Position numbers and translations under genes: made by a program. Of a DNA stretch of 64,000 nucleotides, positions 16,306 through 56,400 are shown piece by piece (position 1 is the stretch's first letter; every line of letters starts with the position of its first letter). The notes beneath the pieces were generated by a model. It saw only the letters and a list, made by a program, of their open reading frames with translations, searched no databases and was not told where the DNA came from. Origin of the DNA: Podarcis pityusensis (Eukaryota); the NCBI GenBank assembly GCA_964106645.2, contig OZ067039.1, one strand, 5' to 3'.

Positions 16306-16342
16306 CAAATCAGAGAGTATGTATTTTATAAAATGCAAATTA

Positions 16343-16601
16343 CTGTATTTTTTGCTCTATCAGACTCACTTGTTCCCTCCTAAAAAGTAAGGGGAAATGT
16401 GTGTGCGTCTTATGGAGTGAATGCAGGCTGCGCAGCTATCCCAGAAGCCAGAACAGCAAGTGGGATCGCTGCTTTCACTGCGCAGCAATCCCTCTTGTTG
16501 TTCTGGCTTCTGAGATTCAGAATATTTTTTTTCTTGTTTTCCTCCTCCAAAAACTAGCTGCGTCTTATGGTCTGGTGCATCTTATAGAGCGAAAAATATG
16601 G
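16343..16601. mobile_element. Non-autonomous Tc2/pogo-like MITE, short variant with internal hairpin
   Basis: TA|CTGTATTTTT ... AAAAATATGG|TA. Subterminal sequence similar to 23850-24446. Internal 35-bp inverted repeat at 16438-16516. Confidence 0.8.
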
Positions 16602-17040: not shown

Positions 17041-17175
17041 CAGCCTTCCTCAACCTGGTGTCCATCAGATGCTGTTGGAACACAACTGTTATCATCATTG
17101 GCTATTAGCCATGCTGGCCAGGACTGATGGAAGTTGTAGTCCAACAACATCTGGAGGGCATCACATTGGGGAAGT
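17041..17175. mobile_element. hAT-like palindromic MITE (degenerate)
   Basis: cagccttcctcaacctgg...gatggaagttgtagtccaacaacatctggagggca, same family as 49159-49294. Confidence 0.65.
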
Positions 17176-23849: not shown

Positions 23850-24446
23850 CCGTATTTTTTGCCCCACAGGATGCACTTTTTCCCCTCCAAAAATGAAGGG
23901 GAAATGTGTGTGCATCCTATGGGGCGAATGCAGGCTTTCGCTGAAGCCTGGAGAGCTAGCGGCATTGGTGCACACCGACCCCTCTCGCTCTCCAGACTTC
24001 AGGAAGCTATCCGCAAGCCTTGTGAGCCCGCGGGAGTTCCTGCGGGCTCACAAGGCTTGCGGGCAGCAGCCTGCAGCCCGAAGCACGAGGCACCCTCCGG
24101 AGGGCGCCCCGTGCTTCGGGCGGGTGTCCGCAAGCCTTGCGCGCCGGCGGGAGGTCCCGCTGGGCGCGCGAGGCTTGGGGCGGCAACCTGCCGCCCGAAG
24201 CACGGGGAGCCCTCCGAAGGGCGCCCCGTGCTTCAGGCGGGTGTGCGCAAGCGTTGCGCGCCCGGCGGGAGGTCCTGCCGGGCACGCGAGGCTTGGGGCG
24301 GCAGCCTGCCCTTCGGGCAGGTGTGCGCAAGGCTTGGGGCAGCAGCTGCGGCGGGGGGGGGAAATAATTTTTTTTTATTCATTCCCCCCCCCAAAAAACG
24401 AGGTGCGTCCTATGGGCCGGTGCGCCCTATAGGACGAAAAATACGG
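23850..24446. mobile_element. Non-autonomous Tc2/pogo-like (Tc1-mariner superfamily) DNA transposon with internal 117-bp GC-rich tandem repeat
   Basis: TA|CCGTATTTTT ... AAAAATACGG|TA termini with TA TSD. Repeat units start at 24011, 24128 and 24245. Ends are shared with the copy at 16343-16601. Confidence 0.85.
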
Positions 24447-29578: not shown

Positions 29579-29704
29579 CAGGCATTGGCCCTCCAGATGT
29601 TTTGAACTACAAATCCCATCATCCTTGACCACTGGTCCTGTTTGCTAGGGATGATGGGAGTTGTAGTCCCAAAACATCTGGAGGGCCGAGTTTGCCTATG
29701 CCTG
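29579..29704. mobile_element. hAT (Charlie-like) palindromic MITE
   Basis: CAGGCAT...ATGCCTG termini, internal actaca..tcccatcat / atgatgggagttgtagt palindrome. 8-bp TSD GGCTACAT/GGCTACAC. Confidence 0.8.
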
Positions 29705-31848: not shown

Positions 31849-32262
31849 AACATTTTTTTAAAAAATAAACTTTTTAAATACACCCATGCAAGAAATATAA
31901 TACAAGCAGAAGACAGGGGGCTGCACATGCCATCCCGGTCCCAATAATCATCCCATGCACTTGCCACAATTGTCCAATGCAGAGTGAAGAAGGTATAAAG
32001 GCAGCTATTTGCATGCGTTCGCCTGAACTGTGCCACATGTTCAAGTGAACACAGATGGAAGCCTTATTCACACCATTCCCAACCAAAACAGTACGGCCAA
32101 GGACATGGGAAGGGGACGCTGTGAGTGGGGACGCTGTGCACAGCCCCATGTCACCTACTTGTGTTAATAGGCTCAATTGCCCAGACAAAGCTATCCAGAT
32201 TAGGGGCATGTGTGAACTTGCAATAGGCACTGCCCAACAGACAACTGGGACAGTGAAAGGTA

Positions 32263-32487
32263 CAGTGGTACCTCGGGTTACAAACACCTCGGGCTACAAA
32301 CACCTCAGGTTACAGACTCCGCTAACCCGGAAGTAGTACCTCAGGTTAAGAACTTTACCTCAGGATGAGAACAGAAATTGTGCGCTGGTGGTGCGGCAGC
32401 AGCGGGAGGCCCCATTAGCTAAAGTGGTATCTCAGGTTAAGAACGGACCTCCAGAACGAATTAAGTTAGTAACCAGAGGTACCACTG
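32263..32487. mobile_element. Tigger/pogo-like MITE
   Basis: TA|CAGTGGTACCTC ... GAGGTACCACTG|TA. Internal repeated tcaggttaagaac motifs. Confidence 0.85.
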
Positions 32488-33250
32488 TATATCTTTTCTG
32501 TTGTAGTTATGCTGACAATGCATTTGGATTTGTTTCACTTTTCCAGGGTATAGCTTGAAACACTACAAAATACCTATAAATTGGGTTGACCCGATAGCCA
32601 GATAGAACACATGCACAAAGAAGTCAAGGTGTCCAGCAGTCAAAGGTGATTCTGTAATATGAAGACTAAAAAACCATTGAGCTGGTTCAGACAATCATAT
32701 ATTGCTTTAATAAACCAAGATATGAATGAGCCTTTTCCTCTTTTCTTGCCCCTCCCTCTGGTACAAGCTATAATTAAATGAGGAAGCTTCTAACTAACTA
32801 CAGTTTCCTGTTAAGTCTGAACCAGGAAAACCTTGGAACAAGCCAGAATATTAAACAAACTTCAATTCATAGTTGAATACCCTGGCTTGTTCTAATGCTA
32901 GTAACCAGAGTTTCCCAGAATGAATAAAAACCAAAAACTAAGTTTAGAGACTTCCTGGTTTACATTGTGGCTCACTGAAAAGGAACAAAGGTGCTGGGTG
33001 TGTGGGCAAGAGGCTTGCTCATAACTTGGCTTCCTTAGGTAGAGATATGATCATCCAAATGTGGCCAGAAATTGGTCATAACCTGAATAGGAACACCACA
33101 GAAAAAGAAGTGTCCTTGCTGGTAATGCTAACAAGAGAGTGCACTGGAGTTGCTTTTATTAAATGGCAACAAGCAGAATTTTTATTTTATTTTTTGGCAG
33201 GGAGGAAAATGAACATCCATGAAAACTGGAAAGGTAACACAAAAGAAAGA

Positions 33251-33424
33251 TAAAAAAATCCTTCCAGTAGCACCTTTAAGACCAACTAAGTTAGTTCTTG
33301 GTATGAGCTTTCGTGTGCAAGCACACTTCTCATACCAAGAACTAACTTAGTTGGTCTTAAAGGTGCTACTGGAAGGATTTTTTTATTTTGACTATGGCAG
33401 ACCAACACGGCTACCTATCTGTAA
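33251..33424. mobile_element. Penelope-like retroelement insertion with inverted (head-to-head) pseudo-LTR fragments plus 3' tail
   Basis: Perfect 57-bp inverted repeat (33251-33307 / 33329-33385). 12-bp direct repeat ACAAAAGAAAGA at 33239-33250 and 33425-33436. Same family as 37855-38019. Confidence 0.8.
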
Positions 33425-33944
33425 ACAAAAGAAAGAGTGTTTCATTCAAGTCGTAGGATGGGATCACAGAAGTTATGAGACACTGGAATGCAAAGAACCA
33501 CAGCCAACATATGTAACTCTAAGCCTCTCATGAGGTTGTCAATTGCCAGAAAGGTCAACTTGCTTCATTTTCAGCAGAGAGGGTTTTAAAATATATATTT
33601 TAGCACTTGTTGGCACCTGAAGGGTGTCGCTGCATGGTGGATTATCACTTGCCTACAACATGGTTTGGAGACATTTCCAGATGTTTCAAATTTCTGATAA
33701 AACTTCTTAGCAGAGTATTTCCACTGGATGTGACCAAGTTTTAAGAGCACAATTTCTCATCCAAACTGCTGTAGGAGAAAATGCCACACTGGGAGTGTAT
33801 ATGCGAGACAGATCTTTAAGTCCTGTGTGCTGCAGCAGAGAAAACTGGAAGAGGAGCATATAAAGGAGCATTCGTGTCACAGGAAGACGCTAGGTAATTT
33901 TTAGACCTCGGACTTAATGGTCTTACATGCCTATCTTTTTAGAT

Positions 33945-34072
33945 CAGTGTCTCTCAAACTTGAGTCACCAGCTATTGTTGGACTACAGCTCCCATCATCC
34001 CACTAGCCCTGCTAGCTAGGGATGATGGGAGTTGTAGTCCAACAACAGCTGGGAACCCAATTTTGAGAAAAA
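33945..34072. mobile_element. hAT-like palindromic MITE
   Basis: gttggactacagctcccatcatccc...gggatgatgggagttgtagtccaac core palindrome. Confidence 0.7.
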
Positions 34073-35281: not shown

Positions 35282-36883
35282 CAGGGGTGCCTAACCGGGG
35301 CACCACAATGGATTGAATCATCCCTAACTCCAGCTGCAATGTAATTGTGCCTTAGGATTAAGGTAATCACCCCTTTCAGCCTTCAATTTTGTTACTACAT
35401 GTATGGCAGCTGAGCAGTAGTGATAAAACACACTGCTTCCGTTTCTTCAACTGCCTCTGACTGAATGGGGTTATCCCCACAGCTAGGTCTTCTTTACACA
35501 GCCAGTTGTTCTACAGTAACACCCCCTGGAGCCCCCTTAAGTTCTGGGTTTTGTTTTGTTTCATGTTGATGGGGTGAAGTATGGAGCGAAAAATGTCGAA
35601 ACAGCCCCAGACAGGATCTGAGGTTGCTGCTTTACATCCCTTTCAACTCAGAATAAGTGTAAGCCATTAAGAGAGTGCATTATTTCATGTGATCCACTCC
35701 ATAAAGTGCAAAATCCGGGGGGGGGGGGGGAACCTGCCTGAAGTCCAACACCCATACCAAATAAGCAGTTTTTGCTTGTGTTTTTTTCCTCTCTCTCGTT
35801 TTACAGAACCCAAACCGTGAAAGGGGGGTGAAAGAGGCAAAGGAAACACTGATGAAACATTCAAACTAAATTTCAAACCTGGGAAAACTGAGTGGCAGCA
35901 CCAAACATCAATCCTGTCACAAAGAAAACAGCACTGACACTAATCACCACCTCATATTCTAGTCCCCCCTAATGTTCTCTCCACCACCACTCCCGGTGCT
36001 CTAATTCACACTGAGATGTGTCATGTTGTTTCAACAAATTCCTTTCCACTGCTGTAGCTAGCAAAAGAGCGAACCTCACACTTCCACAGGGAAATGTCCC
36101 GTCCCCCCCGCTCTCTCGCTCTCTCTCTTAAATCATTGCAATCAAATCAAATATTTTGTTAACCATGGAGCCTGGATGGCTGGGCCAGGTTTCTGAGCAA
36201 TAATGGATAAGTTTTTGGACTTAAAGAGTCAAAAGAGGTTTGCCAGGATTCAAAGGCTTGCATCTCATCCTCTCCTACTGAGAAATATCTAGCATGTTCG
36301 CGACCTCAGCCAAAGTGCATACTACGACAACTTCACGGGGCATTTTTCAAAAAATATTCTTCATCTTTCTATGGATCTTTAGCCCCTTCAGTCATCCATC
36401 AAAGCTGCAAAGGAAGCCAGCCTTGGGGGAGAACCCTCACTGTCAACTTTTTATCATTGTGTGTGCTGCCCACAGGAACACTCCATTCTTAAGATGACTT
36501 CATTGGCTATTAATTGCTTGATCTACCCAGAAGCAACTTTGAACAAAAGGAAACACAGCTGCAACTATAATTTAAAAATCACAGCAGAAAGAAGTGCCCC
36601 CACCCTCTCCTTTTGCTTTCTGACATTTCTTTCCTGTCTCTCTTTAACAGGCTCTCTGCTAGCTTCAGCCTTTTAAAAATGGCTTCAATGCAGCTACTGC
36701 TGTGGAAAGCAGGCACCGTGTTTACATCTGGAAAACATGAGGCAGACCCTTTCACACGGATTCAACACACCAACACATACACAGACGGACTGACGGCTCT
36801 CCTGCCCTGCAATGCTACTTGCTCTGGTGACTAGATCACCATAGCAACTGGACTGGTGATCATCACGGTGGGATTCTACTTAC

Positions 36884-36937
36884 CGTGAACGTGGTCTCCT
36901 TGTTCTGCTTTCGAGTAGGTGAGGGGGACCCAGGACT
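36884..36937 (-). CDS. GAS7: GAS7 coding exon (exon 5 equivalent): SPGSPSPTRKQNKETTFT
   Basis: Resembles human NLGSSSPSKKQSKENTIT. Acceptor ctctctcctcag, donor gtaagt. 54 bp, phase 0 to phase 0. Confidence 0.93.
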
Positions 36938-36988
36938 CTGAGGAGAGAGGCAAGAGGCATCATCAAAACTGCACTCCACATCCGACAT
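36884..36988 (-). CDS. GAS7: Alternative first coding exon of short GAS7 isoform (isoform-a-like): MSDVECSFDDASCLSPQ+SPGSPSPTRKQNKETTFT
   Basis: ATG at 36988-36986 in accATG context, in frame and contiguous with exon 5. The peptide resembles the human GAS7 isoform a N-terminus MSNMENSFDDVSCLSPQ as I recall it. Summed exons give 1011 nt = 336 aa + stop. Confidence 0.85.
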
Positions 36989-37700
36989 GGTATGTATTCT
37001 GAGTTACTGGAAGGTGTATGTGTGTGCTTGTGTGTGCGTGTGTGGGAAGCAGGGGTGCTCAGTGCTTTGTGCAAGCCAAATTGGAGGAGATTCCCTTTCT
37101 GCCCTGCTTTCTGGCTTAGCCTCTTTCCATGCCCCAGAGGTGTCACAGTTCAACTCTTGCATGGGAGACTCCTGCACTGTGCTCACGAAGCAGCACACGA
37201 GCTCTGTACAGCCAGATAATTCATCCGAAACACGGCGACACCTCCCCTTCCAATCAGTGCCTAGCTTTGGAATTAACTCTTCCACTGCGTGCCAACTCTG
37301 AAGCAGGGCTCTTTAGCTACTGTGCCTAAAAGAGTTATTCGAAGCTCTGCTTTACGTTTCGCATGCAGTCCAGCTGCTGTACACAAAGGCTTCCTTTGCT
37401 GTTAGGTTCATATCGCAACTGCACACACATCTCATCCGCTCGCCCCACTGCCCCCCTCCCACTCCAGCTTTAAAAGCCGGGACTCCAGAAGCAAGGTGAG
37501 GAGGAAGTCTCTGCAGTGTTGTTGCTAACACACTGCAGGCATCCCCAAGGCTTCCTTCTGCATCCATCTGCAAATTAGCAAAAGCATCAAAACAACACAA
37601 CAAAAAAGCCACCTGCATCAGACTGACAGTGAATGGAATGACCCAAAACAGAAGTATAGTGCACATGGAGTCAGCAGCCACCTATTTTAAAGTGTTTGTT
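36989..37700 (-). promoter_or_regulatory. Putative internal promoter / 5' UTR of the short GAS7 isoform
   Basis: Lies directly upstream of the isoform-a-like ATG. No recognisable repeats, locally more CpG, GC-box-like tract cgccccactgccccctccc at about 37441-37460. The TSS cannot be placed from sequence alone. Confidence 0.5.
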
Positions 37701-37854
37701 TGGCATGCCATTCTGTCTGAGGCTACCGTGCAACAGTTAACAACATGATGGAACATGTCCTGCTTCACCATTCATTGTAACCTTATTGCTTTTATTTATG
37801 GGGGTTTTGTCCTTTGTAGTCCTTACCAGGGTTATCTCTCACAAAGAAATATTT

Positions 37855-38019
37855 GTGAGAGATATTTGAGTAATACTCCTCCCCACCTTCTCACTATATA
37901 GAAGGATCTGGCAACTTCTGTTTCAGTGTATCTGAAGAAGTGTGCTTGCACACGAAAGCTCATACCAAGAACTAACTTAGTTGGTCTTAAAGGTGCTACT
38001 GGAAGAATTTTTTTTATTT
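37855..38019 (+). mobile_element. Penelope-like retroelement (PLE) pseudo-LTR fragment containing a hammerhead ribozyme motif
   Basis: Flanked by 12-bp direct repeat AAAGAAATATTT (37843-37854 and 38020-38031). Contains CTGAAGA...GAAA core. Shares about 79 bp near-identity with the insertion at 33251-33424. Confidence 0.8.
37928..37965 (+). ncRNA. Minimal type I hammerhead ribozyme motif (PLE-associated)
   Basis: GUAU-CUGAAGA-A-GUGUGC(UU)GCACAC-GAA-AGCU-C-AUAC. Stem I GUAU/AUAC, core CUGANGA, 6-bp stem II, GAAA, palindromic AGCU helix III, UC cleavage site after C37961. Confidence 0.75.
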
Positions 38020-38265
38020 AAAGAAATATTTATGCCACACAGCCCAGTTTTACACAGAGTAACAAAAAAGTACCACAAGGACAAACATAGCACAACAACT
38101 TTATTCTAGGAAGAAGACTGCCTTAACACTCTCTGATAGAGAACAGTTCCCCCCGCATGTCTCCTTAATTTTTATGTGCAAAACTCCAGAGATCTAGAAA
38201 TGCCACAATTTCTTTAGGCACCATTTTCTACCAGCTATGACATCTCTCCCAGAAACCAGTCTATA

Positions 38266-38507
38266 CAGTGGTACCTCGGGTTACATACGCTTCAGGTTAC
38301 ATGCGCTTCAGGTTACAGACGCTGCTAACCCAGAAATAGTGCTTCAGGTTAAGAACTTTGCTTCAGGATAAGAACAGAAATCGTGCTCCGGCGGCCCGGC
38401 GGCAGCAGGAGGCCCCATTGGCTAAAGTGGTGCTTCAGGTTAAGAACAGTTTCAGGTTAAGAACAGACCTCCGGAACGAATTAAGTACTTAACCCAAGGT
38501 ACCACTG
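38266..38507. mobile_element. Tigger/pogo-like MITE (same family as 32263-32487)
   Basis: TA|CAGTGGTACCT ... AGGTACCACTG|TA. Colinear with the 32.3-kb copy. Confidence 0.85.
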
Positions 38508-40140
38508 TAGGTGCTATGGTGCCTTTTGAACACAAGCCTTCTTGCCTTTCTCTTTATGTCCCCCCCAGACAGCTGCTATTGTTCTTTAAAATATCCTCAC
38601 ATATGTGAAACGGAATCCTTCAATACCCCTCAAAGGAAGCTTCTTGCTGATCCAGAATCTGAAAATGAGTCCATTTCCCTCAGATGTTCTAATCTCATGC
38701 TGACAAGGCAAGTAAATAAATTTTTAAATATCCCTCTTTGTTAGCATTAGTTGCCCACGCATAGCAGAAAAAAGTATGCCCCAAACAGTAGATTGGCATT
38801 GGTCCAGCCGCAAAAGGAGAGCTGACGCTAGCACCTGCGGAAAGAAGAACTGTGTAATGAAGAACTCTAAATCACATTCCCTCTCCAAAATAAATGATGC
38901 TGCTTGTAACTCCCCTGAGCCTGATCTTTAAGGGGGGAAAATATGTTATGGAGTTCCCCTCTACAATGCACTTTCATAATAAACTGCTAGACACAGTAGC
39001 AAATATCAAGTCCTTGAGCTTCCAAACACTCAAGTTTTCTTGGTTAACACTGGCACACCTTAAATTCTTTCAACTACTTTCTTGAAGTCAAATTAGCAAA
39101 GCATCCTGCATTCTTGGTCTCACTCAGCTCCATGCTTTCCAAGGGGCCCACTAGGTTCCCCACTGAACCAATACAAGAGCACTCACCTGTGTTGCAAGCT
39201 GCTGATTCATTTACGGGCCTATTGCCCAAGAACTGTTGAAGCTGCCAATTAAGAACCTGCAAAGCCATTAAGTCAGAGAGTAGCTGTTCCCTGGACCCAC
39301 CAGCCATGCCCTCAAGTAAGACTAGAAAAGATCAGTAGGATCTTAAAGCTATCAAGATACTCTTGATCCAGTATCCAAAACAGATCACCATCCAGTGTAC
39401 TACAAAGAAGCAGCAGCACAAGTCAAGGTGGACTCATGCAAGAATCACCTACAGATCAAGGTCCAAGAGTTTCCAAAGTGAGATATGCAACGCTACAGGC
39501 AGCACTGTAAAGAAGGAGATGTGTTGTATACTCTCGCTTAGGAAAGGCAGAGGTGAATTACTTCCTCAACTACCTCTGCCTCTCTTCATAAAGACACTAC
39601 TGTGTGATAACAAACTACTCACAGGGGCAAAGAAGAACAACTTTGCCAACAATTTAGAACTGGCTTCTCAACCTCAGAGAGAGCAAGGGAGGAAGAGAAG
39701 ATTTCAGAAGATCACTCTCTTGGTGTGCCCACTCCAGCCATATGCTTATTTTAGAGGCAGTGAAGACACGATGCAAAATCTAGTTTTATTCTTCGCCTCT
39801 TTCCTGGTGGCATCATTAAGGGGAGGAAATGAGGGGAATGAGCAGGGAAGAAGAAGAGGGAAAAAGCACCCACACAGTCTACAAGGTCCTCAGAGCTTTT
39901 AAAACCAAGTTTTCCGTGTTCTCACATATGACCTGCTTGACCCAAACAGGGCTCAGTGAACTGAAAGGAGAAACATTTTCCGAACCATGGTCACGTAACA
40001 AATAATTGTCTTATCAATGCACACTTTCTTCTCTGACATTTTGCAACACTTTTTAGTCAGCTCTTAAGAGTTTTTTTGTGAACTACTCTCACACATGCAT
40101 GAACAACTCACCCATAGGAACACAGGAAGCTGCCTTATAG

Positions 40141-46897: not shown

Positions 46898-49158
46898 TTC
46901 TCTTTTAGGTTTTGCATCCTTCAGGTTTTCACGATGAATGGGGAGATTTGGGCAACAAGCAAGATTTAAACAAGGAATCACAGCAGCCACTTTCAAATGA
47001 TAATCTCCAACGGTAGGTGGTGCTGTAACTTTGAATTAGCTCTGCTTAGAGGCAGAACCACAGACAAGGCAAGGTCAATTGCTGGGCTGCAAGCAATGCA
47101 GTGCTGTGTTCTTTTTATGACTGCAGGTAGAAAAATGATTTCTCTAATGCCTACAGCTTCTGTATGCTGGCTCTATGCAGGTCAAGCATGCAATACGTGA
47201 GAAGGGGCACTGCAAGCAGCACATCAAGCTAATTTTCAAGCCAATTCTCAAAAACTACATTAACTCACATTGTGGGACACATTGCACAGGGAGGCAGCAT
47301 GGAGAAGTTAAAAAATAAGAATGCATTAATGGGTCAAACCTCACCTAGACCCCATGAGAATAGGGTTTCAAAGGTAAGGAAACATGTGACATCAGGGCTG
47401 GGGTGGGGGTAAGTGATCAGCAGCAACACCTGAAACTACAAACCAGGCATCTGGGGCAGATTGTCACTACACCTGCTAAACTCCTCTTTGCCCTCTCCTA
47501 CCAATTTTCTTTGTATAGCCCTTTGTGATTATAATGTTTTCTACACATTCCTCTTTCCTCACTAAAGGATTTGTGCTAATGGCTGATTTGTGAAGCCTGC
47601 CCAAGCCAGCTTAGGGTACTGCACTGCAGGCTGCCTTGTGATACCATTACAACATTCTCATTTGTGTACCACTGGTTTTATGCTGTAGTAATTCTTTTTT
47701 AAAAAATCAGAACGCTTTGCAATTGATAATTGCATGTATGTGTTCACAGTAATTGGGGAGTTCTCACTCAGTTGCGACACAGGATTCAGGTGCTTCTTCT
47801 CAAAGCTCTGCATTAGTTACAGGGATATCACTGCTTCTTTGCACTCTTGCAAGTGGAATAATGTGTTTCCCATCCTAGATTATCAATTCCTTGCAGAAGC
47901 ATTGACTTGGGAATGAGATGGGGATGGATGGGCCGGTCGTGCGTGCACAACATCACAACGTCATGCAATGCCCAGACATCAGGCGTGACACCATTGCATG
48001 CAAGGTCTCTAGGCATCACATGGCAACTTGGCTTCCATGACTGGTGGCTCCTCCTTTTCCTGCTGCCACCACCGTGGACGGGGGACTGCTTCCCCTCCAC
48101 TGCACGAGAGGGAGGAGCTAAGTTGCCACCACGTTCCTGTCTCCTCCGACGTGGCACAACCACTCGGCACCATCACACGTGACAGGCTCAGCTTCCATGG
48201 CCGGTGGCTCCTCCACCTCTGCTCCTCTTCCTTATAATACCCATAGTATTTTAACTTTTTTTTTTAAAGTGATGTTTACTAGCAAGGCTACCCTACTACC
48301 TACAGCGATATTGTTTTGTGACCCTCTTACTTTCCTCGAGGCTTGAACATAACACACATCTTTTTCTTTACACACATCTTTTTCTTTACATTTAATTAAG
48401 AGATGCTTTATACCAATAATTCTATTACTTCTGTACTATGCTGCAATAGTGCACACCTTGGCATAAATGCATTTTTATAAAGCAGTAAAATAAATAAAGC
48501 AATGAATCTCTCCAGTACATAGTACTCGTGATTGGAAACAGCCCTCCGGGGCCCAAAATCCTTTTATTTAAAAATGCCAGGGAAGAAACAAGTATGCAGT
48601 GACACTATCTCTAAGCTAAGGCCTCTTCCATATCTAAAGTGATAAACATGAGATTTGATATCATCAGCACCAAAGTTCCTTCTAATCGAGCCAAAACATC
48701 ACTGACACTGAATCAAGGTTAAAGCAAATATGGCACTGAAAGACAAGATCCACCTGGAAATTCCCTAACACAGGGTTGGGGAATCTTTTTTGGCTCCCAT
48801 AACACCAACTCTGGCAGGTGGGTGGAGCAGCTCACCTGTCAATCACACAACATCATTACAGGCTGTCCCAGTCACCTAACGGAATCCCTTTCACAGGGTT
48901 CCAAAGCACCTTATGGCCTAAGGGATGATTCACAAAATCCTCCGGATCAGATGTGTTCATTTCCTTCCCAAACTACAGCATATTTGTGGCGGATGAGTCA
49001 TCAATCAATTCATCATGTGTCATAATTGTACTTGCTAGCTTTCTACTCACATAAAGAAGGCTTTGCATAAAACACAGCTTTTACTGGAGTTCAAAGATCA
49101 GTCAAAACAGGAACGCAATGCAATCCATGTAGCAAGACACACCAGTCACACATAGGAC

Positions 49159-49294
49159 CAGCCTTTCTCAACCTTTGGTTCCCAGGTGTTGTTGGACTAC
49201 AACTCCCATCATTCCTAGCCAGCATGGCCTGTGGTCAGGGATGATGGGAGCTGTAGTTCAAGAACCTGTGGAGCCCCAAGGTTGAGAAAGGCTG
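49159..49294. mobile_element. hAT (Charlie-like) palindromic MITE
   Basis: CAGCCTTTCTCAACCTT ... AAGGTTGAGAAAGGCTG TIRs. Approximate 8-bp TSD cataggac/cataagga. Confidence 0.8.
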
Positions 49295-50276: not shown

Positions 50277-51170
50277 TTCCTGGTATTAGTTACTCAAGGC
50301 TTTGCAACAAAAAGCGGTAAAATATGCACGTGAAAAATCCCCAGGCAGAAAATGTAAAAGTGACAAATCGCTGATGAATAAACCACATGACAAAGTGTGC
50401 ACAGCATCATCTTTCTGCACCATTATGACTAGTGATCCCAATCCAAACACACTTAAGCTAAACCAACAGGTCCAGCTGTAACTAAATATAAAATTTAAAT
50501 GCTCTGCATTGCTCCGTGTGACAGTTTATTGTAAGATGCCTAGAGATGTGAAATTCAGAAGGTGTGGAATAATGAGGAATCTGTTTTGTTCTGAACACAC
50601 ATTTTTTTTATCCAGAGGCCCAACATAGAGAAAAACTAGGAACTGGGGGGAGGAGAGATGGACTGAGAAAAGCTCTTATGAAACATTTTCTTTTTCAGAA
50701 TGATGAATGAAATGCTTTTTAAAAGCAGTGATTTGCAGCAACACTGTTAAACAACCAATTCACATTGCTTCAGGTCTTGTGGCTAAAAGAGTCAAAGCTA
50801 GTAATGTTAGTGATTATAGCTGTTTTACTGTATTTGACTAGATTATTAAAGAGGCAGTGCTCCTAAGATGCGATGTTGGAAATAAGTGCTGAAGAATACT
50901 AACATTTTCAGGCATTTGCCACAGGTGTGAAATCTGGCTGTCTACCAAAGACATTGTTCCTGCAAAATGGTGACACAGCCTTTATATAACACAGCCTTCT
51001 ATTTCTCCAGCATCTCACTTTCCTCAGATTCTTCTACCTGCTGCATCATTGAATGAAACTGAAGATTGTTCGCACACACGCATACAAAATCAAGGAACAG
51101 ATATGTAAAAAAAATTTTTTGGAAAAAAAACCTATTTCTTTTCTTTGGTATATGGGTTTATCACCGAAAG

Positions 51171-53425: not shown

Positions 53426-56400
53426 CCCGGGATGACACCTCCCCCCTCCCCCAGGCTGCTCTCAACTCCCATGTTTGGCAACTGTCCTTTTGGAATGGGA
53501 CCTAACAATTCCTCTCCTCTCTAATGATTAACACCTCTGCCTCCTTCCCCCAAAGTGGGTTCATAGGCATAATCTGAACTTGCTCCTATAAGACAGACCA
53601 GGGATGGGGAATCTGCAGCCAAACAACATCTGGAGGGCCACAAGCTCCCCGTTCCTGCTTTACACAATCCAAAATGTCTTGCTTGATAAAGAGACTTTGG
53701 ATTTTGTTTTGCTATTGAAAACATACTGTTTTGAAAGGTTTGTTTTATAAATAAATAAATATATCATGGTCCTGCCAGAATTCTAGCAACAGGCTGTATA
53801 TGTCTTTGGAAAGACTGAAGTATGCCAACATTGTGCAGGGGGGGGGGGGAAATGTTATGCCAACTTGACTTTCAGGTATTGTCCTGCTGACCTATAATAT
53901 GATATGAGTCAATTAAAAACTTCATAAACAACTAGACATCTCCAATAAAATATACCAAGTTTGCAGTAGGAGCTTCACAAATGGTTCCACAGAAGCAGCG
54001 CAATATGTCCATCAGCTGTGGACTAGTGTCATGTTTCCAATATTTGTGAAAATCATGTTAACTGAATTTCATTAAAGTACAAATGAATCACGGCCATTCT
54101 GCTTTTAAGTTTCTGTGTTTTAGTTGTCAGTGCTAAATATTTACACATGCTTATCCTTTACAGTCAATATTAAAAAAAATCAACAAGCAATGATGCAAAA
54201 TCCAGATTTTGGGGAGGGAGGCATATTAATCTGATATGACTGATTTTAATAAAACTACTGATTTTGTATTTAGAAATATTTAACAAAAGCAAATCTGTTT
54301 CTTTGTGCAAGTTGCAGGCAGCGAAATTGTTGCAGAAAATCATCCTCTCCTGCCACAAAAAAAAAAAACCAACACCCACAGCCTTATATTTTCATGCTTT
54401 CAGAAAGGAAATCATACAGCTGATCCATCCTTAATTCTTACACATGAAAAGATGAAAGGAACTGGCATCCCTGACTTGCTGTTATGTAACATAAGAATCC
54501 TTGCCAACCCTGCAGTGTTACACTGCCATATACTGGCAGTAACTAAAATAACAAGGCAGTCCACAATTACAGTTCTCAGAATAGAAGAAGTCAATCAGTT
54601 TGCTTTTCCAGAAAAAAAAGCCTTATAGACAATTGGCACAAATACAGGTTGCTGGTGGCTGGTTTTGTTTTTTCCCTCTCCCCAAAGTCAATACATGTTA
54701 TACTAATAGCTCTATTCAACTGATTTGGCAAGCCTGTGAATTATTTCAGATGCTACTTAACTCCTAGGGAACTTGGGCACAGGGCAGTATCAAAGCACAT
54801 GAAATGAGTAAATTACGAGAAAATAAATATGTAAGATGGAACGGAAAACAACCGATACAGTGGATTCCAGAAGATGCACCTCTATGGGAGGCTAAGCAGC
54901 TCCTAAGCAAGAGATAATAAGGGTGTTCAGACACACAACACTATGAACTAACTGGGAAAGGGGAAGAGAGGAGCTGCGCCAGCCAGCCTGGTGGCTGCAC
55001 ATTTGGCTTCAGTAAGAACAGGCACTTTTCAAATATGGCTGCTCTACCTGAAGGGGGATTCTGATTGGCCAAGGAAGAGTCCTACTCATATGGGACCTGT
55101 TGACATTGAGGCCAAAAGCAGAGTGGCTGAAGGGACATGGCTGGTCAGTGTGAAAAGCTAGCATGATTCTGCTTCCTCCTCTAATGTTGGCTAAGTTGGG
55201 GGTGGGGTTGTATGTATCCCCTGTCTAAGGGACCACAGCTTTTTGCATTTAGGTGTCATTTGTCCCTGTCTTGTCTACATATCACTGGAGTTCACGGCTG
55301 TGATGGCAAGAAAAGCTACAGCAGGAAGACAAGCCCAAGAATGACAGAGCCTGCTCACATACTGCTTATCGTCACCGTGGAACCCTTTAACCCAGCTCTC
55401 TCCTCCATATTTCTACTCCCACTCCCTTCTGGCTCTGGGCTTCCCAACAACCTCCTCCCTCAACAGATCACGCCGCCTATCCATCTCTGGAGGGCCTAAG
55501 ATTCTTCTTCCTACATACATCTGTCTCTTTCATAATGTCTGACCTATCTCCCTCTCAGGGGCTCTCTGTCAAATGAGAATGGTCTTTGAGTCGCTCTGTA
55601 ATACCTTCTCATCACAAGGCTGTCGTCCATGTATGCCATCTCCAGGATATCATCATCATAGTCTTATCCACTCAAAAGCTTTTGAAAGCACAGGGTTGCA
55701 GGGGTCTCACAGCAGTCTCAGTGCTTTTGTAGCACTAGGTACTAGAAACGTACCTCTATAACAGAGGTGTTTCCTCAGATAGCCTTGTTCCAGAGGGATG
55801 GCAAAGGGTTTTTCTCTCCCTTGTTGTTGGTGCTATGTGTTTGAGTACAGAAGAAAAGCAAGTATGTAGGGCAAGTTCCAAAACTGCCATGGTTTACCAT
55901 GAACAAACTGGTTGTGCCTATTTTGCTCCTTTCTGCTAGCATGGGGCGGAAACGAACTGCAATCCTTGGCTTAGCATTACATTCAAACTGGGGATTGTGG
56001 CTTGTTTTCTTCCAACAAACAAACAAACCAGGATCGTTAGGTCAAGAATAATTCCTGCCTCCAGATCATGGTTTATTTGGAGCAAAACAAACCATTATTC
56101 CCAGTTCAGACTCAACACTAAGCCATAGATTGTGGCTTTTTCCCCATCCCTCTTCCATGTTACATGAGGGTATGACTGTTGTAAGGAAGGAAAACTGTAA
56201 ACTGTGGTTTACCATAATGTGCGAATAGCCAACAACCTGCAGAAATGTTCCACTGCTTTATACACTAAAATTGTAGCAGTTACATTGCAATGTTAGACCA
56301 ATGTTAGGTAAGATTTTTCTTTATTCAGATACAGGTTTATAAAGCTGCATTTGGGATGATGGGCTCTGCACCGCACCATCACCCTGCCTGGGAAACATAT

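Follow-up and report, generated by a model that had tools for sequence, protein, structure and literature searches.

Does an intact-looking hammerhead ribozyme on the strand opposite GAS7, close to one of the promoters of the gene, cut a transcript and so take part in GAS7 control, or is it a passenger of the repeat in which it sits? The question is raised by a motif at positions 37928-37965 (+ strand) of a stretch of 64,000 nucleotides from Podarcis pityusensis (assembly GCA_964106645.2, contig OZ067039.1), hereafter the window. We hereby examine the motif, the insertion that contains it, the repeat family behind the insertion and the relation of all three to GAS7.

The motif and its position relative to GAS7

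The GAS7 exons are on the - strand, so the motif is antisense to the gene, as an earlier note on this DNA had claimed. One exon matches human GAS7 in PDB (E 1.5e-19) and another matches the GAS7 linker family (53.9 bits). An upstream ATG, with its A at 36988, opens 35 codons that run to a donor at 36883; this coding stretch (36884-36988, - strand) was delimited by reading frame and splice signals, and RNA reads cover the shared exon 36937-36884, which is defined by an internal acceptor at 36939-38. The product of the upstream ATG is presumably isoform a, a label that comes from human GAS7; its 35-residue peptide has no match in PDB. From the A at 36988 to 37928 there are 940 nt, in keeping with the distance of about 0.9 kb given in the earlier note. 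Since a further GAS7 exon lies at ~45.5 kb, the motif falls within an intron of the long isoforms and is antisense to them.

The letters, RNAfold, a descriptor scan, the published consensus and a turtle motif were used to define 37928-37965 as a minimal type I hammerhead motif. Helix I is composed of GUAU (37928-31) and AUAC (37962-65), 4 bp. The segment C3-A9 is CUGAAGA (37932-38; C3 at 37932, A9 at 37938) and is followed by an unpaired A at 37939; helix II pairs 37940-44 with 37949-53, starting from G10.1 (37940) and C11.1 (37953). G12-A13-A14 occupy 37954-56, with G12 at 37954, and the palindrome AGCU (37957-60; A15.1 at 37957, U16.1 at 37960) stands in place of helix III. C17 is at 37961 and the scissile bond is 37961/37962. 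Reading the + strand thus bears out the core nucleotides, the 4-bp helix I and the palindrome that had been reported. The reported 6-bp stem II has to be shortened: a sixth pair would leave a loop of 2 nt, and RNAfold gives 5 bp closed by the loop CUUG.

A descriptor composed of the core, a helix II of at least 5 bp and a helix I of at least 4 bp, run on both strands of the window, finds 37928-37965 alone. The window therefore holds a single intact core, as first described, although it holds more than one copy, because a second copy, truncated in the core, lies at 33251-33424. Among 300 first-order Markov sequences as long as the window, the same descriptor matched 1. With both helices relaxed to at least 4 bp it matched 3 of 300, and in its loosest form (at least 3 and at least 4 bp) 8 of 300; this last form gives two sites in the window, the second being a poor one at 50889. 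The bare pattern CUGANGA..GAAA occurs 9 times in the window against 6.67 expected, which is not above chance. The stability of the hammerhead fold is unremarkable (z -0.07). The Rfam check that had been suggested returned no match at the gathering threshold in the 64 kb, and the 6 and 1 matches obtained at E<=10 in two scans include no hammerhead family.

A hammerhead of the Penelope-like kind

The closest published motif is the minimal hammerhead of the turtle Chrysemys picta bellii (Fig. S3 of Cervera and de la Pena 2014, PMC4209133), in which the core CUGAAGA with its unpaired A is identical, and which shares the G-C first pair of helix II, the arrangement GAAA-GC-U-H without loop 3 and the 4-bp helix I. 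By eye, two pairs differ from the turtle in a compensatory manner, pair 2 of helix I being U-A here and C-G there, and pair 4 of helix II U-A here and G-C there (PMC4209133). Loop 2 is CUUG in the window and 7 nt in the turtle, and position 17 is C and U, respectively. The window family is outside the 56 motifs listed in that paper, where the turtle entry is not marked as linked to an ORF of a Penelope-like element (PLE); metazoan PLE minimal hammerheads are described there as mostly solitary genomic copies, as is the case here (PMC4209133).

The motif shows the features of this class: a core of the form CUGANGA ... GAAA ... UH, an unpaired base after A9 followed by the pair G10.1-C11.1, palindromic positions 15.2-16.2 without a stable helix III, a helix I of 4-5 bp and a helix II of at least 5 bp, with covariation in the two compensatory changes just described. 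It also has the U-rich 5' flank that is a published trait of minimal hammerheads. Judged by its motif, it belongs to the PLE minimal hammerheads, an already known kind of element. The turtle-like hammerhead family is one that we take to be Neptune.

Could such a motif be a chance match? The missing Rfam match and the ordinary fold stability are in line with chance, but the single match among 300 simulated windows, the compensatory changes relative to the turtle and the location in a repeat with PLE anatomy are not; chance, to which we assign next to no probability, is effectively refuted.

The insertion and its empty sites

The motif lies in a 165-bp insertion (37855-38019, + strand) that is not present in three other genomes, in which contigs join 37842 to 38020. 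The insertion is bordered by a target-site duplication (TSD) of 12 AT-rich bp, AAAGAAATATTT, with its left copy at 37843-37854 and its right copy at 38020-38031, as found by repeat comparison and from the empty sites. The genomes compared at the locus were DNA runs X2, X4 and X11 and RNA run X23, four out of 24 candidate runs; X2 has the same species label as the run that best matches the window (X1), and X4 and X11 are from other species. In each of the three DNA runs the empty site is one contig with full flank depth and 12 letters that fit both sides, and 177 nt (165+12) are skipped in 3/3 runs, which confirms the insertion and the 12-bp TSD of the earlier note; these calls come from contigs, which can drop rare alleles, and X1 was outside the comparison. 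X2 differs from the window at 4 flank positions.

As a consequence of its absence from 3/3 other genomes, the insertion is not fixed and is no conserved feature of GAS7, and it is likely a recent passive stub of an abundant Penelope-like element. A host-domesticated intronic ribozyme would be expected to be conserved at the orthologous position, which is empty in 3/3 genomes.

The first 12 nt of the insertion (37855-37866, + strand) are junction filler and not family sequence: 37855-64 is the reverse complement of the flank 37833-42, and 2 nt follow. Snap-back synthesis at the 5' junction is the likely origin of this filler. Because 10 nt of flank were copied inverted, a 13-bp stem spans the left TSD (37833-37864). 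The remaining 153 bp (37867-38019, + strand) are a pseudo-LTR-like fragment of a repeat family that ends in a T tract without a tail; its limits come from depth and loose ends, and family sequence begins at 37867 according to loose ends in X4, X11 and X23. The window copy carries two differences from nearly all other copies, at 37877 and 38006, and these near-private differences count against a very recent age.

The repeat family and a second copy

The summed contig depth over the element, divided by the depth of single-copy flank, is 1.5e5 in X2, 4.4e4 in X4 and 1.5e5 in X11; a depth ratio is no copy number, and the size of the family is put roughly, as an order of magnitude only, at 10^4 to 10^5 copies. 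In X2, T37946 makes up about 37% of depth and A37989 about 41%, compared with about 1% or less in X4 and X11, which places the window copy in a lineage-specific subfamily. Most copies of the other genomes have A at 37946, where the window subfamily has T, and with A the helix II region is a perfect 14-nt palindrome.

A second copy (33251-33424) lies inverted 4.6 kb from the hammerhead copy and has its own 12-bp TSD (left 33239-33250, right 33425-33436, by repeat comparison), so that the TSD is 12 bp in both copies of the window. Its inverted left arm (33251-33330, - strand) starts inside the core, lacks the 5' strand of helix I and C3-G5 as well as the tail, and is identical to the first copy in 78 of 79 nt. 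The right arm (33329-33424, + strand) begins 1-3 nt upstream of the scissile bond and has a tail of 35-36 nt (~33389-33424). The arms are head-to-head, with the tail at one end only; this tail reaches 35-36 nt beyond the end point of the first copy, which itself has none, and 153 RNA reads of X23 run past 38019 into it. A similar inversion at AGCT is seen in one X11 contig. We also considered the right arm as a record of a cleaved template and rejected this, since the case is a single junction with a 2-nt microhomology, and there is no rise in family depth at 37962. The second copy would form a near-perfect hairpin of ~60 bp (-105 kcal/mol, z -22 to -24) in the GAS7 pre-mRNA, a possible substrate there for editing or dsRNA processing.

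At the hammerhead locus there is no tandem array. Head-to-tail hammerhead units do occur in single contigs of the other genomes (37966 joined to 37926 in X2 and X4, the spacers being 10 and 8 nt; 37972 joined to 37929 in X11). Of the X23 reads, 110 at 37867 and 186 at 38015 have one 13-nt flank motif in common on the two sides of the element, which suggests one expressed copy with its own TSD in that species.

Other repeats surround the two copies. A MITE-like element of ~240 bp, with 18-bp terminal inverted repeats and TA flanks, is present at 38266-38507, ~245 bp downstream of the insertion, and at 32261-32489, the two being 84-88% alike; we presume it to be of the Tc1/mariner type. A dispersed family with internal inverted arms occurs at 17066-17167, 29602-29694, 33942-34070, 49156-49294 and 53608-53638, and a GC-rich tandem repeat with a 117-bp period (23986-24336) adjoins a repeat that recurs at 16341-16429.

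Probable Penelope-like origin of the insertion

The anatomy of the two copies agrees with that of endonuclease-bearing (EN+) PLEs: the hammerhead is in a terminal repeat, the optional tail of 30-40 nt is found (35-36 nt) in the right arm of the second copy only, an inverted 5'-truncated copy lies beside a direct copy at 33251-33424, and copies are dispersed with TSDs at AT-rich sites (12 bp, with an empty site). Both the inverted truncated copy and a tail of this length confined to one end have been described for PLEs (Craig et al. 2021, PMC8557442; Arkhipova et al. 2013, PMC3846280). Insertions of canonical EN+ PLEs show, as here, 5' truncation, an optional tail, a TSD, and TATA and Inr motifs in the pLTR (PMC8557442, PMC3846280); they differ in that the window holds terminal stubs only and that its TSD has 12 bp against 8-10 bp in the rotifer.

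A further likeness is found in Poseidon PAc of Anolis carolinensis (Frangieh et al. 2024, PMC11167929), which also has a hammerhead in its pLTR. In that element the tail of 30-40 nt derives from two internal start sites of the reverse transcriptase (RT), targets are AT-rich, both target strands are extended and uncleaved RNA is the main template (PMC11167929). The sequences of helices I, II and III of PAc differ from those of the window motif, which indicates a different family; moreover, the PAc ORF starts at helix II, where the window has no long frame, and the PAc protein is known whereas only terminal stubs are present here. Polymorphic Penelope insertions are common in Anolis (PMC7561263), and PLEs are reported as not found in the birds and mammals sampled by Li et al. 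2026 (10.64898/2026.07.22.740005); together with the turtle as source of the nearest motif, this fits a non-avian reptile as host.

A Pfam scan of 59 frames (56 of the 85 stop-to-stop frames of at least 90 aa in the window, and 3 GAS7 exon frames) found neither an RT nor a GIY-YIG domain, both copies being too short to contain such an ORF. An astrovirus capsid match was dismissed as sub-threshold (17.2 of 25 bits). Hammerhead pattern scans for relatives gave 0 loci in viral contigs and 0 in metagenomes, and the loci found with a second pattern (1 metagenome, 4 prokaryote) were set aside as chance, with a GC of 0.57-0.72 and matches of just 13-17 nt. PLE origin is argued from anatomy and motif homology.

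Could the family instead be non-autonomous in its own right, as a non-LTR retrozyme or a SINE-like unit would be, and not derive from an autonomous PLE? Non-LTR retrozymes are, like the insertion, non-coding, related to pLTRs, equipped with a type I hammerhead and present in reptiles, and they are proposed to derive from pLTRs (10.64898/2026.07.22.740005). In favour of such an element, the majority of copies look like short units that start immediately upstream of helix I, and the head-to-tail 37926-37966 repeats with 8-10-nt spacers occur in single contigs of other genomes. Retrozymes are, however, defined by at least 2 tandem units (10.64898/2026.07.22.740005), each with a hammerhead, and are found as tandem arrays, whereas the two copies of the window stand alone or are inverted. 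The family also shows traits of PLEs, namely the tail, the inverted arm and copies reaching upstream of the start. An independent element is therefore improbable, and we conclude with considerable confidence that the insertion is the stub of an EN+ PLE, a 5'-truncated fragment of its pseudo-LTR.

Insertion may then have proceeded as follows. The GIY-YIG endonuclease of the element would nick an AT-rich target with a 12-nt stagger, and the RT would prime on the nick and begin within the element RNA, using the more upstream of two start sites; differential use of these sites would explain why the first copy ends at the T tract and the right arm of the second includes the tail. The RT would copy through an uncleaved hammerhead and stop 58 nt beyond the putative start site of the family, which implies a read-through or tandem transcript as template. 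The other target end would fold back, copy 10 nt of its own flank and join the cDNA. In the life cycle of the element, to which it belongs, the ribozyme would require another copy as partner, the two AGCU palindromes forming helix III, and probably the protein of the element too.

Where the copies of the family begin

The window copy retains a TATA-like box, TATATAGA (37895-37902, + strand), of putative function, 30 nt before the A (37925) of an initiator-like TTCAGT (37922-37927, + strand), where most copies of the family start. Among 24 of 304 loose-end rows, 37928 is the best supported 5' end (18, 28 and 22 contigs in X2, X4 and X11), and 37926 has 11 and 12 contigs in X4 and X11; the flanks before both are long and heterogeneous (agreement 0.40-0.45). 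A step in bin depth near 37923-37925 is seen in X2, X4 and X11, and most copies start at about 37923-37928; divergent upstream sequence of other subfamilies could mimic such a step, and short copies may be under-counted. Depth reaching 37901 is 17% in X2, 0.1% in X4 and 12% in X11, and in X4 68% of the small depth at that position has T, which perfects the TATA box. No rise in depth occurs at the scissile bond in any of the three runs, depth at 37946 and 37963 being 2.28 and 2.06 million in X2, 0.40 and 0.36 million in X4, and 1.31 and 1.26 million in X11.

TATA-initiator pairs number 5 in 128 kb (both strands), that is 2e-4 per 5-nt slot against 1e-2 for acceptor-like sites, a count that was made after the depth step was seen. 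The initiator-like site in fact overlaps an acceptor-like pyrimidine tract and CAG (37924-26), and the start could thus also be read as a splice acceptor; this is less favoured, since the flanks before 37926 and 37928 are heterogeneous and are not one shared exon.

It is about an even bet that most stubs are run-off copies of uncleaved RNA starting at 37925. On this reading, to which the same even odds apply, the pseudo-LTR would use its TATA box and initiator to start RNA at A37925, 3 nt ahead of helix I; the RT would begin 95-130 nt downstream at the tail sites and leave the RNA at its 5' end, similarly to integrated strong-stop DNA. Comparable signals exist elsewhere: in the Anolis UTR a TATA-like run can be seen by eye 31 nt ahead of an initiator-like A that is itself 14 nt upstream of C3 (PMC11167929), and rotifer pLTRs contain TATA and Inr motifs (PMC3846280). 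The Penelope of D. virilis is different, with an internal TATA-less promoter (PMC2377424) and an intron that ends at helix I. In the literature searched, figures and some supplements aside, we did not find this 5'-end pattern of PLE stubs stated, and text searches of the supplements of PMC8557442 and PMC11167929 gave 0 matches.

Cleavage, transcription and the relation to GAS7

The minimal PLE-type hammerhead was expected to cleave only as a dimer, and this is supported by agreement of the window sequence with the published traits and by the anatomy of the family. In published work on this motif type a monomer showed no cleavage, and dimers and trimers low cleavage (PMC4209133). The Anolis PLE hammerhead was cut only with the protein of the element, cutting was dispensable for insertion, and no RNA-seq ends are reported at its cleavage site (PMC11167929). 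In the folds computed here, helix I has a probability of about 0.5 in 38- and 61-nt contexts and of 0.00 in 95-, 153- and 501-nt contexts, its 5' strand pairing near 37990-38003 in the 95- and 153-nt folds; the active dimer has -11 to -13 kcal/mol against -26 to -44 kcal/mol for the best dimer. Energy models ignore tertiary contacts of the catalytic core, so that this folding argument is soft. The window copy is predicted to be unable to cut itself as a single copy.

RNA run X23 belongs to another species, one in which the DNA shows the empty site; the portion analysed was about 12% of the run. GAS7 received some 5 reads, only in bins that cover the shared exon, and their common direction suggests a stranded library. 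Between 36944 and 37836, 0 of 19 bins have reads on either strand, on what is the empty site of another species and not the allele of the window. The element itself has depths of up to 310 in one direction and 237 in the opposite one, and 92% of the 758 reads continue into other sequence, so that copies of the family appear to be read passively from both sides. No pile-up of read ends is listed at the hammerhead in X23, standard RNA-seq showing 5'-OH ends poorly.

The earlier note had proposed that a divergent transcript of the GAS7 promoter dimerises in trans and is cut at 37961/37962, thereby regulating GAS7. The geometry does fit, the motif being on the + strand 940 nt from the upstream ATG, with no AATAAA or ATTAAA on that strand from 36989 to 38714, and partners are conceivable because family RNA exists in both directions. 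This proposal is nonetheless extremely unlikely: the site is empty in 3/3 other genomes, published monomers are inactive and dimers weak in vitro (PMC4209133), cleavage in Anolis required protein (PMC11167929), folding predicts a sequestered helix I and an active dimer far weaker than the best one, antisense copies are as common as sense copies in RNA, and no X23 reads lie upstream of the shared exon (in the other species, with its empty site). A regulatory cut site is thus not supported, and a role in GAS7 control through cleavage has only a very slight probability.

A different effect would need no cleavage. The promoter of the window copy itself (TATA 37895, initiator 37925), aided by that of GAS7, might start a + strand RNA antisense to the long GAS7 pre-mRNA, which we hold to be quite unlikely; that this would be an allele-specific side effect independent of cutting is just as doubtful. 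The pair has canonical spacing and is one of few in 128 kb, most family copies begin there, the window copy retains a TATA box that only a minority of copies has (in X2, 17% of depth), similar motifs occur in rotifer pLTRs (PMC3846280), and the first poly(A) signal on the + strand is at 38715. On the other side, only 58 nt upstream of the putative start are retained, and the promoter of D. virilis Penelope is internal and TATA-less (PMC2377424). The insertion is, in our judgement, likely recent and without a role in GAS7 control.

Conclusions

The locus itself matters little: PLE-type stubs of this sort are very numerous, and this one is lacking in other individuals and species. In a reptile genome, repeat density alone leads one to expect an intact-looking ribozyme near a promoter, with two copies found here within 5 kb. 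The family is of more interest than the locus. Its tandem units of 45-51 nt could form dimers in cis and are natural candidates for active cleavage; if the family pattern holds, it points to the few tandem-core loci as the natural places for cleavage by dimers. If the reading of the stubs as run-off copies is true, the genome records the in vivo transcription start of a vertebrate PLE, and the hammerhead stays uncut on most templates, which is relevant to the question of what role PLE hammerheads play. Should the pattern hold on a full assembly, it would match, in vivo, the finding made in vitro that the template is uncleaved RNA.
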